DNA from: a virus
Lineage: Duplodnaviria > Heunggongvirae > Uroviricota > Caudoviricetes
Virus record (IMG/VR): IMGVR_UViG_2671181019_000012
Coordinates: 1 to 20,910 of that record
Strand: one strand, 5' to 3'
Length of the DNA stretch: 20,910 bases
In this document: piece by piece, positions 14,453 through 14,700 of the stretch
Position numbering within the stretch: the stretch's first letter is position 1
How the letters are laid out: each line of letters opens with the position of its first letter
The notes under the pieces: generated by a model
What the model was told of the DNA's origin: nothing
Database searches by the model: none
What the model saw: the letters and a program-made list of their open reading frames with translations, nothing else
Program-made: the position numbers and the translations under genes

Positions 14453-14658
14453 GTTTAGCTAAACTAAATAACAATAAATAAAATGAAACAAAATGTAAAT
14501 AACAGGGGGGGGGGGGTAAGTGACTTATAAATTTGGTTAGCTAACCTTTATAAGAAACACTGTTTGTAAATGATTCATTTCTGACAACGGATATATCGAA
14601 TTTGAGTAAGAAAAACACTTCAACTAACCTTACTCTCTGATTTGTTTAGCTAAACAAA
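14453..14658. promoter_or_regulatory. Three TTAGCTAA-core palindromes upstream of the HTH gene (candidate operators)
   Basis: GTTTAGCTAAAC (14453-14464), GGTTAGCTAACC (14535-14546), TTTGTTTAGCTAAACAAA (14641-14658). Confidence 0.5.
14505..14516. repeat. Homopolymeric G12 tract
   Basis: Twelve consecutive G between operator-like palindromes 1 and 2. Confidence 0.9.
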
Positions 14659-14700
14659 TTACTGTAAGGAATCCGATGACGTTAAAAAAAAGGGGGGGAT

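Follow-up and report, generated by a model that had tools for sequence, protein, structure and literature searches.

Long homopolymers in front of a regulator gene raise the question of whether they form a genetic switch, whether they are mere errors of sequencing, or whether they have another origin. Here, we address this question for a stretch of 20,910 nucleotides (the window) in which a run of 12 G residues and a run of eight A followed by seven G residues precede a gene for a helix-turn-helix (HTH) protein. A sequence-only reading had proposed that expression of this regulator could be phase-variable as a result of slipped-strand mutation in the tracts, with an assembly or sequencing artefact as the alternative. 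Our analysis favours a different answer, to which we assign a probability of roughly 0.65: The G12 tract is young and unstable in length and most likely has no regulatory role by design, the A8G7 run serves as a ribosome-binding site, and neither of them is placed to act as a switch.

Results

The G12 homopolymer occupies positions 14505-14516 of the plus strand (context ...TAACA-G12-TAAGTGAC...) and is flanked by palindromes with a TTAGCTAA core at 14453-14464 and 14535-14546. The second tract, on the same strand, consists of A8 (14684-14691) and G7 (14692-14698) in the context ...CGTT-A8-G7-AT-ATG and ends 2 nt before the ATG at 14701. Reading of the letters confirmed this arrangement as it had been described, and the claim that such tracts are unusual was borne out by run counts and shuffling: There is no other G or C run longer than six in the 20.9-kb window, the G9 word is found solely inside the G12 tract (0.01 occurrences expected in dinucleotide shuffles), and AAAAAAGGGGGG was observed once as compared to an expectation of 0.00 in dinucleotide-preserving shuffles. 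The tracts are not chance features. A duplication linking the two tract regions was considered and dismissed; the repeats concerned (16-24 nt, 71-88% identity) were treated as chance, and their similarity resides mostly in the runs themselves and is weaker in the ancestral sequences.

The tracts are indeed located in the control region of the HTH gene. This gene (14701-14958, plus strand) encodes a protein of 85 amino acids that matches the HigA family model TIGR02607 with 65.9 bits (cut-off 47.7, E 2e-18) and that has YbaQ and HigA among its relatives in the PDB. The usual upstream position of a HigB partner (14004-14629) is occupied by an oriV and by operators and contains no ORF of at least 50 amino acids, and no toxin gene is present in the RefSeq annotation of 12 or more genomes. 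Since there is no adjacent higB gene, we regard the HTH gene as an orphan HigA-like regulator gene (higA in the following). Its ATG and its ORF are intact in all 41 relatives that we compared. Other assignments were rejected: the HigA-like protein is not similar to the KorA protein of the plasmid described below, the absence of an ORF of at least 50 amino acids in 14004-14629 speaks against a decayed higB gene or a leader peptide 5' of higA, and the mini-ORFs around the G tract (MKQNVNNRGGG...; ATG/GTG-ACT-TAT-AAA-TTT-GGT-TAG) are not conserved in length or start.

The window is chromosomal DNA of E. coli, and the 2.1 kb around the tracts match 130 of 5,426 complete E. coli genomes, 12 of them with at least 99% identity. 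According to the RefSeq annotation of the best match and to Pfam and NCBIfam scans, the genes of the island that carries the tracts are, in this order, a tyrosine integrase gene (int, 8096-9199), an ORF of 296 amino acids without assigned family, a small ORF overlapping the antisense RNA PtaRNA1, trbL (10616-12019), trbJ (12198-12992), traJ (13074-13439), which is preceded by a traJ-II RNA motif, and an AlpA/excisionase-like ORF of 97 amino acids (13710-14003, minus strand; phrog_66, excisionase/transcriptional regulator, 7e-6). The latter is divergent from higA, and an intergenic region of 700 bp extends from it to the HTH gene; the cargo 3' of the HTH gene varies from island to island. The genes int, trbJ, trbL, traJ and the alpA-like gene, by which PIMEs and IncP islands are recognized, are all present together, and the predicted gene set matches the integrative mobilizable elements known as "IncP island", GIsul2 or PIME. 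These elements rely on IncP helper plasmids (PMC5704250; bioRxiv 10.64898/2026.01.12.698999). No recognisable repA or trfA gene was found in the window, and none of the island ORFs tested matched a Rep family; the 296-aa ORF was rejected as a TrfA candidate because it is not similar to plasmid TrfA.

Several other features of the window deserve to be mentioned. The traJ-II RNA motif (Rfam; 13457-13556, minus strand) was detected at full length with 93 bits directly 5' of the traJ/NikA-like gene. PtaRNA1 (10540-10612, plus strand) scored 48.6 bits, just over the gathering score, and overlaps the 5' end of an ORF of 70 amino acids (10334-10546, minus strand); the two would fit a type I toxin-antitoxin pair. 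As compared to the related locus L001, PtaRNA1 of the window contains a 6-bp GTTAAC duplication (10583-10588). An ORF of 57 amino acids in the gap between trbJ and trbL (12013-12186, minus strand) is placed where IncP plasmids and IncP islands have the entry-exclusion gene trbK. Comparison with the loci L023, L025, L026, L028 and L030 revealed a cargo hot spot directly 3' of higA (about 15000-17700 in the window), which holds a protein of 420 amino acids without known family and an MltR-family regulator in the window, and a DNA methylase or an AAA_28 protein beside a cyclase/AGS_C-type protein in other islands. This variety is consistent with the defence-system cargo reported for PIMEs. Positions 1-7974 form a separate prophage-like segment with genes for a cI-type repressor (932-1633), a Dam methylase (5120-5677) and a tyrosine integrase (6811-7974), and this segment abuts the integrase of the island. 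In L001, the RefSeq annotation places a tRNA-Ser between the two integrases; ARAGORN detected no tRNA in the window.

The palindromes on either side of the G tract had been called operator-like. They are palindromes indeed, and their identity, which had been missed, is that of an exact IncP-1 KorA operator and a variant of it. The 12-bp KorA operator (OA) consensus is GTTTAGCTAAAC (PMC2665229), and the window contains this exact sequence twice on the plus strand: OA1 (14453-14464), which is followed by T and thus gives TAAACT as in the IncP promoters trfAp and korAp, and OA3 (14644-14655), just 3' of the best candidate promoter of higA. In between, OA2 (14535-14546, plus strand) is a symmetric variant palindrome, GGTTAGCTAACC, with two mismatches, and it overlaps a candidate -10 region, TAACCT. 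Moreover, just upstream of the alpA-like gene, there are two tandem sites, TTTAGCGGCTAAA and TTTAGCCGCTAAA (14026-14053), that correspond exactly to the KorB operator (OB) consensus TTTAGCSGCTAAA as used in PMC11790492. Both the OA and the OB sites are conserved in the relatives. In L022 (OZ039294.1), the first base of OA1 (equivalent to position 14453) is changed from G to A, and this is the only substitution in the three OA-like palindromes in a clade of 19 near-identical islands.

These operators flank an oriV of the island between the divergent alpA-like and HigA-like genes. This oriV comprises three 22-bp iterons (14304-14369, plus strand), homologues of the TrfA-type oriV iterons of IncP-1-like plasmids, and two DnaA-box-like sequences read from the letters (14389-14397 and 14415-14423). 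The region 14200-14440 is homologous to the oriV beside trfA in IncP-1-like conjugative plasmids of roughly 41 kb from E. coli and Klebsiella (15850-16420 in L040, NZ_CP061111.1), and the homology covers the iterons, the DnaA boxes and flanking GGTTAAAG-type repeats. An IncX/R6K origin was rejected since the matching plasmids are IncP-1-like and carry trfA. One member of this plasmid family, pEC187_3, encodes trfA, a TrfB/KorA-related gene, incC and korB, it has two OA sites, nine OB sites and nine iterons, and its trfA and korA promoters consist of OB, TTGACY, a spacer of 17 bp and TAAACT, with OA over the -10 region; its TraJ protein is 70% identical to that of the island. The window encodes neither korA nor korB, and no homologues of KorA and TrfA were found in the island. 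This suggests that the global repressors of an IncP-1-like helper plasmid act on the regulatory module of the island, and replication of the island may depend on the TrfA protein of the helper. Neither KorA nor KorB appears in the PIME preprint, which describes the mechanism of helper sensing as unknown (bioRxiv 10.64898/2026.01.12.698999).

How variable is the G tract among related islands? We compared the window with 41 related loci from complete genomes, NCBI and Logan assemblies, metagenomes and one Enterobacter genome, Enterobacter vonholyi, which was the one locus added by a scan of species-representative genomes. In all relatives with at most 98% identity (range 88-98%, including Enterobacter vonholyi), the site of the tract harbours a non-repetitive 8-mer (GGGGATTG, GAGGATTG, AGGAAAGG, AAGGGTTG, GGGAGCTG or AGGCAAGG), with GRGGATTG as the older, ancestral form, so that the repeat is not kept across the family. 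Variability in the intergenic region peaks at this 8-mer; the region is otherwise highly conserved, and its operators and much of the flanks are invariant. Ten forms of the tract occur across the 42 sequences including the window: G4ATTG, G5TTG, G6TG, G7TG, G8TG, G8, G9, G9TG, G10TG and G12. The form GGGGGTTG is present in L006 and L028, G6TG in eight loci, G7TG in five, G8TG in two, G8 in one and G9 in two, and the sublineage of the window, as defined by a private AlpA K56 allele and by TAAG after the G run, has G9TG (twice), G10TG (once) and the G12 of the window itself. The 12 nt of the window equal the total length of G10TG, with the interrupting T replaced by G. The sequence adjoining the tract (14517-14525, plus strand) was TAGATGACT in the ancestors and has become TAGGTGACT and then TAAGTGACT.

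This variation is concentrated at a single site. The 19 near-identical islands differ at nine SNP sites in about 740 bp, as compared to six forms of the tract alone, and every indel is located at the tract apart from artefacts in one low-coverage metagenome contig. Likewise, the tract is the sole length-variable site over 2.1 kb in the ten closest genomes, and G6TG, G7TG, G8TG and G8 are all represented among seven ETEC chromosomes in which the island has the same position, with one SNP only over the 2.1 kb compared in five of them. In each substitution step of the allele series, a base adjacent to the run is replaced by G (A to G, T to G, T to G), the T-to-G conversion is seen in at least three backgrounds (L003; L001/L015; the window versus L043), and indels start once the G run has reached about 6-7. 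The comparison of related islands that the sequence-only reading had proposed thus yields pronounced heterogeneity, and the differences within near-clonal lineages support its view of the tract as slippage-prone. Both G12 and the forms from G8 to G10TG in the relatives are long enough for slippage at a high rate, and the length varies among close isolates, to which the sequencing platform may contribute. Taken together, the comparative data identify the G tract as a genuine hot spot of mutation.

For the length of such a tract to switch expression, its position relative to the promoter is decisive. The best-scoring candidate sigma-70 promoter of higA in a weight-matrix scan, TTGAGT-17-TAACCT (14602-14630, plus strand), is conserved in most relatives and lies 86 bp 3' of the G tract and immediately 5' of OA3. 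Neither a consensus scan nor the weight-matrix scan revealed a promoter that spans the G tract, and consensus promoter matches in this AT-rich DNA are no commoner than in shuffles. The arrangement ATAACA-N17-TATAAA, with the G tract in its spacer, was rejected since it lacks the T at -7, is absent from the consensus scan, and is also absent from the weight-matrix matches listed at a threshold of at least 7 bits. Another weak candidate, (A/G)TGACT-16-TAACCT, has its -10 region overlapping OA2 and its -35-like hexamer within TAAGTGACT, and the G tract ends 3 nt 5' of this hexamer. As in the promoters of the plasmid, OA1 (TAAACT) and OA2 (TAACCT) could overlap the -10 regions of weak rightward promoters, and if these exist, the G tract would be in the leader of one and 3 nt 5' of the -35-like element of the other. 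A structured RNA or riboswitch in the leader was rejected, since folding was not significant (z-scores of -0.5 and -1.0) and there was no Rfam match in 14004-14700. For the predicted promoters, the G tract is neither between -35 and -10 nor in an ORF. As KorA and KorB co-operate without a strict requirement for spacing or helical phase according to PMC2665229 and PMC4889941, the operator spacing is unlikely to matter; on the other hand, the OA1-OA2 interval has a fixed length in all relatives that lack the tract, which may hint that spacing does matter. The tract could also alter the geometry of an UP element or the leader, and a modest modulatory effect is possible.

The A8G7 run behaves differently from the G tract. 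An A-rich stretch with a G run (A6-9 followed by G4-8, or GGAGGGGGG) is kept in all 41 relatives, and its 3' edge is 0-3 nt from the same ATG in all of them and 2 nt throughout the clade of the window. The alleles differ mainly by substitution at the boundary of the runs at constant length (T2A8G7, T3A8G6, A9G6, A8G8), and a few differ by +1 or +2 nt. With this conserved position and composition, the run plausibly is the ordinary Shine-Dalgarno site of higA (AAGGGGG, which resembles AAGGAGG) preceded by an A-rich stretch, in agreement with the earlier suggestion that it acts as a ribosome-binding site. Since the run precedes the start codon and keeps its 3' edge close to the ATG, slippage can neither cause a frameshift in higA nor remove the Shine-Dalgarno sequence. 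Upstream of the run, there is a second ATG (14676-14678, plus strand) that is preceded by AAGGA and is out of frame with higA in the window. T3A8G8 alleles bring this ATG in frame, and RefSeq annotates a CDS of 285 bp (94 codons) there. This ATG is replaced by TAG in the distant relatives L011 and L012, and its AAGGA sequence is lost in L006, L009 and L010.

Discussion

Our work supports the idea that the two tracts are different things and that neither of them is placed to switch higA by its length. The site of the G tract would be a weakly constrained 8-bp spacer with one KorA-type operator on either side, in the control and origin region of an IncP-dependent element. Transient misalignment extends runs by converting the neighbouring base. 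Here, substitutions would have converted the bases beside a short G run to G (G4ATTG, G5TTG, G6TG, G8), which is the pattern that transient-misalignment mutagenesis predicts. Once long enough, the run would then have changed by replication slippage to give G7TG, G8TG, G9, G9TG, G10TG and G12. As the tract is 5' of or between the candidate promoters, a change in its length would have no or only a small effect on the HigA-like gene. In the A8G7 run, an A-rich stretch and a G run that could pair with the anti-Shine-Dalgarno sequence would form the ribosome-binding site of higA, and slippage would alter its 5' side only and would at most move the upstream ATG in or out of frame.

This answer has to be weighed against three others. 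It is quite unlikely that the exact lengths, including G12, are sequencing or assembly artefacts and that the real run is shorter and interrupted, about G6TG. Homopolymers are the classic site of long-read errors, less so for Illumina, many of the compared genomes are long-read assemblies for which polishing is not stated, and G12 itself is confined to the window among the sequences compared; thus, some length calls in complete genomes may contain such errors, and the exact length in any single long-read assembly is uncertain. However, over 2.1 kb in the ten closest genomes, none of the other homopolymers (A8, T9, A8G7) shows variation. For the 9.9-kb island, a comparison of the window with its best complete-genome match gave 32 substitutions and three indel events; the G tract accounts for one of these events, and one T6/T7 difference is the sole other homopolymer change. 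With only three indel events, the window is unlikely to be an assembly full of homopolymer errors. Moreover, the forms follow the lineage: G6TG was found in eight independent assemblies, two of them metagenomes, and G9TG and G10TG come from independent draft and Logan assemblies of different projects and occur only in the K56/TAAG sublineage. The substitution steps (A to G, T to G) are also atypical of errors in homopolymer length. Since the tract varies within near-clonal lineages and its long forms are present in independent drafts, we conclude that it is real, and a pure artefact, the alternative that had been raised initially, is an unlikely source of its variation. A true contingency locus, in which the length of the G tract tunes or switches transcription of the HigA-like regulator gene, for example through a shift of the A-rich DNA on the 5' side against the -35 region of the promoter that overlaps OA2 or through a change in the leader of the OA1 promoter, would be in agreement with a tract that is long and highly polymorphic even in clonal lineages, that is placed between two operators and 3 nt 5' of a -35-like hexamer in an interval of otherwise invariant length, and that precedes a regulator gene in the regulatory module of an element whose mechanism of induction is called unknown in the PIME preprint. 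Subpopulations would then differ in how easily the island is activated by a helper plasmid. Yet, the tract is missing from most of the family, where its site is the least conserved 8-mer, it is outside every candidate core promoter, with the candidates themselves being weak and not significant, the co-operation of KorA and KorB tolerates variable spacing, and the lengths drift upward rather than toggle between two states. We therefore consider this possibility unlikely.

The proposal of phase-variable control thus finds no support: Neither tract sits where its length would switch expression, as a classical switch by spacer length or by frameshift would require. The G tract is outside the candidate core promoters and the ORF, is missing from the older relatives and reflects recent growth in one lineage, and the A/G run lies 5' of the start codon, from which its 3' edge is separated by 0-3 nt in all relatives. 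We found nothing specific in the literature on poly-G phase variation or mononucleotide SSR polymorphism in E. coli. The monotonic growth to 12 nt could reflect selection instead of drift, and it is worth considering, as a very unlikely case, that a contingency locus is just emerging in E. coli, in which the tract changes the promoter-proximal geometry and renders the HigA-like regulator heritably heterogeneous. Some cells would then keep the mobilizable element silent while others are primed for an IncP helper plasmid, and E. coli, which seldom uses SSR switches, would be evolving a new bet-hedging switch on a mobile element. Finally, A8G7 might serve programmed recoding, with transcriptional slippage on A8 or a ribosomal +1 shift at AAA-AGG joining the upstream ORF to higA and a mix of 85-aa and N-extended proteins as the result. 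Slippage is known to occur at A-runs and at the rare AGG codon, a good Shine-Dalgarno sequence lies 5 nt from the upstream ATG, and the natural T3A8G8 allele is in frame and annotated as a CDS of 94 codons. Against this, A8 is too short for efficient slippage of the E. coli RNA polymerase, the extension comprises nine residues with no known role, and the lack of conservation of the upstream ATG and its Shine-Dalgarno sequence in the loci mentioned above makes designed recoding highly improbable.

With the G tract regarded as a young hot spot and A8G7 as a ribosome-binding site, the main value of the locus is a clean natural series of the birth and runaway of a homopolymer in E. coli, from G4 to G12 in near-identical DNA; as a note of caution, this site will differ between assemblies. 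The context outweighs the tracts: It is a compact control and origin module of an IncP-dependent mobilizable island that mimics the helper. A chromosomal island with exact copies of the KorA and KorB operators of its presumed helper and with TrfA-type iterons suggests a testable route by which such islands could sense and exploit IncP-type plasmids.

How does the locus compare to known systems? The allele series resembles the birth of microsatellites, with transient-misalignment or dislocation mutagenesis followed by slippage: bases adjacent to the run become G, repeatedly and in independent backgrounds, and indels appear once the run has reached about 6-7; this mechanism is inferred from the allele series. 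SSR contingency loci include the poly-G/poly-C tracts in the Neisseria porA and opc promoters and homopolymers in Haemophilus and Campylobacter genes. The window shares with them a long G homopolymer in a control region, length differences among close isolates, and slipped-strand mispairing as the likely mutational mechanism. In those loci, the tract is located between -35 and -10 or in the ORF and is kept species-wide, whereas the G tract of the window is outside the candidate core promoters and the ORF, is missing from most relatives, and resides in E. coli, a host proficient in mismatch repair. The G tract is thus another example of the known hypermutable mononucleotide repeats, and the case for it as a regulatory switch is weak. 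The A8G7 run resembles a Shine-Dalgarno sequence with an A-rich enhancer, with AAGGGGG (AAGGAGG in relatives) 3-5 nt before the ATG and after a run of A6-9; it differs from the usual site by an unusually long pure G run (G7, and G8 in some alleles) that offers several pairing registers, and by run boundaries that shift by substitution, as in the allele series given above.

The closest parallels concern the control module and the island as a whole. As in the KorA-KorB system of IncP-1 plasmids (RK2/RP4), there are two exact OA sites and one variant as well as two exact OB sites, and the IncP-1-like plasmid family of E. coli shares these operators, located at its trfA and korA promoters, and the iterons with the island. 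In contrast to RK2/RP4, the window is devoid of korA and korB, and the adjacent HTH protein belongs to the HigA family; only OA1 and OA2 resemble the arrangement of the plasmid operators over the -10 region. The likeness to PIMEs, IncP islands and GIsul2 extends over the tyrosine integrase, the alpA-like gene, trbJ, the small ORF, trbL and traJ, and it includes the iteron-containing oriV, an orphan antitoxin-type gene and variable cargo. The window differs from these elements in that no recognisable repA or trfA gene was found in it, and from PIME1 in the regulator that is divergent from alpA, which is HigA-like in the window and of the LuxR type in PIME1.
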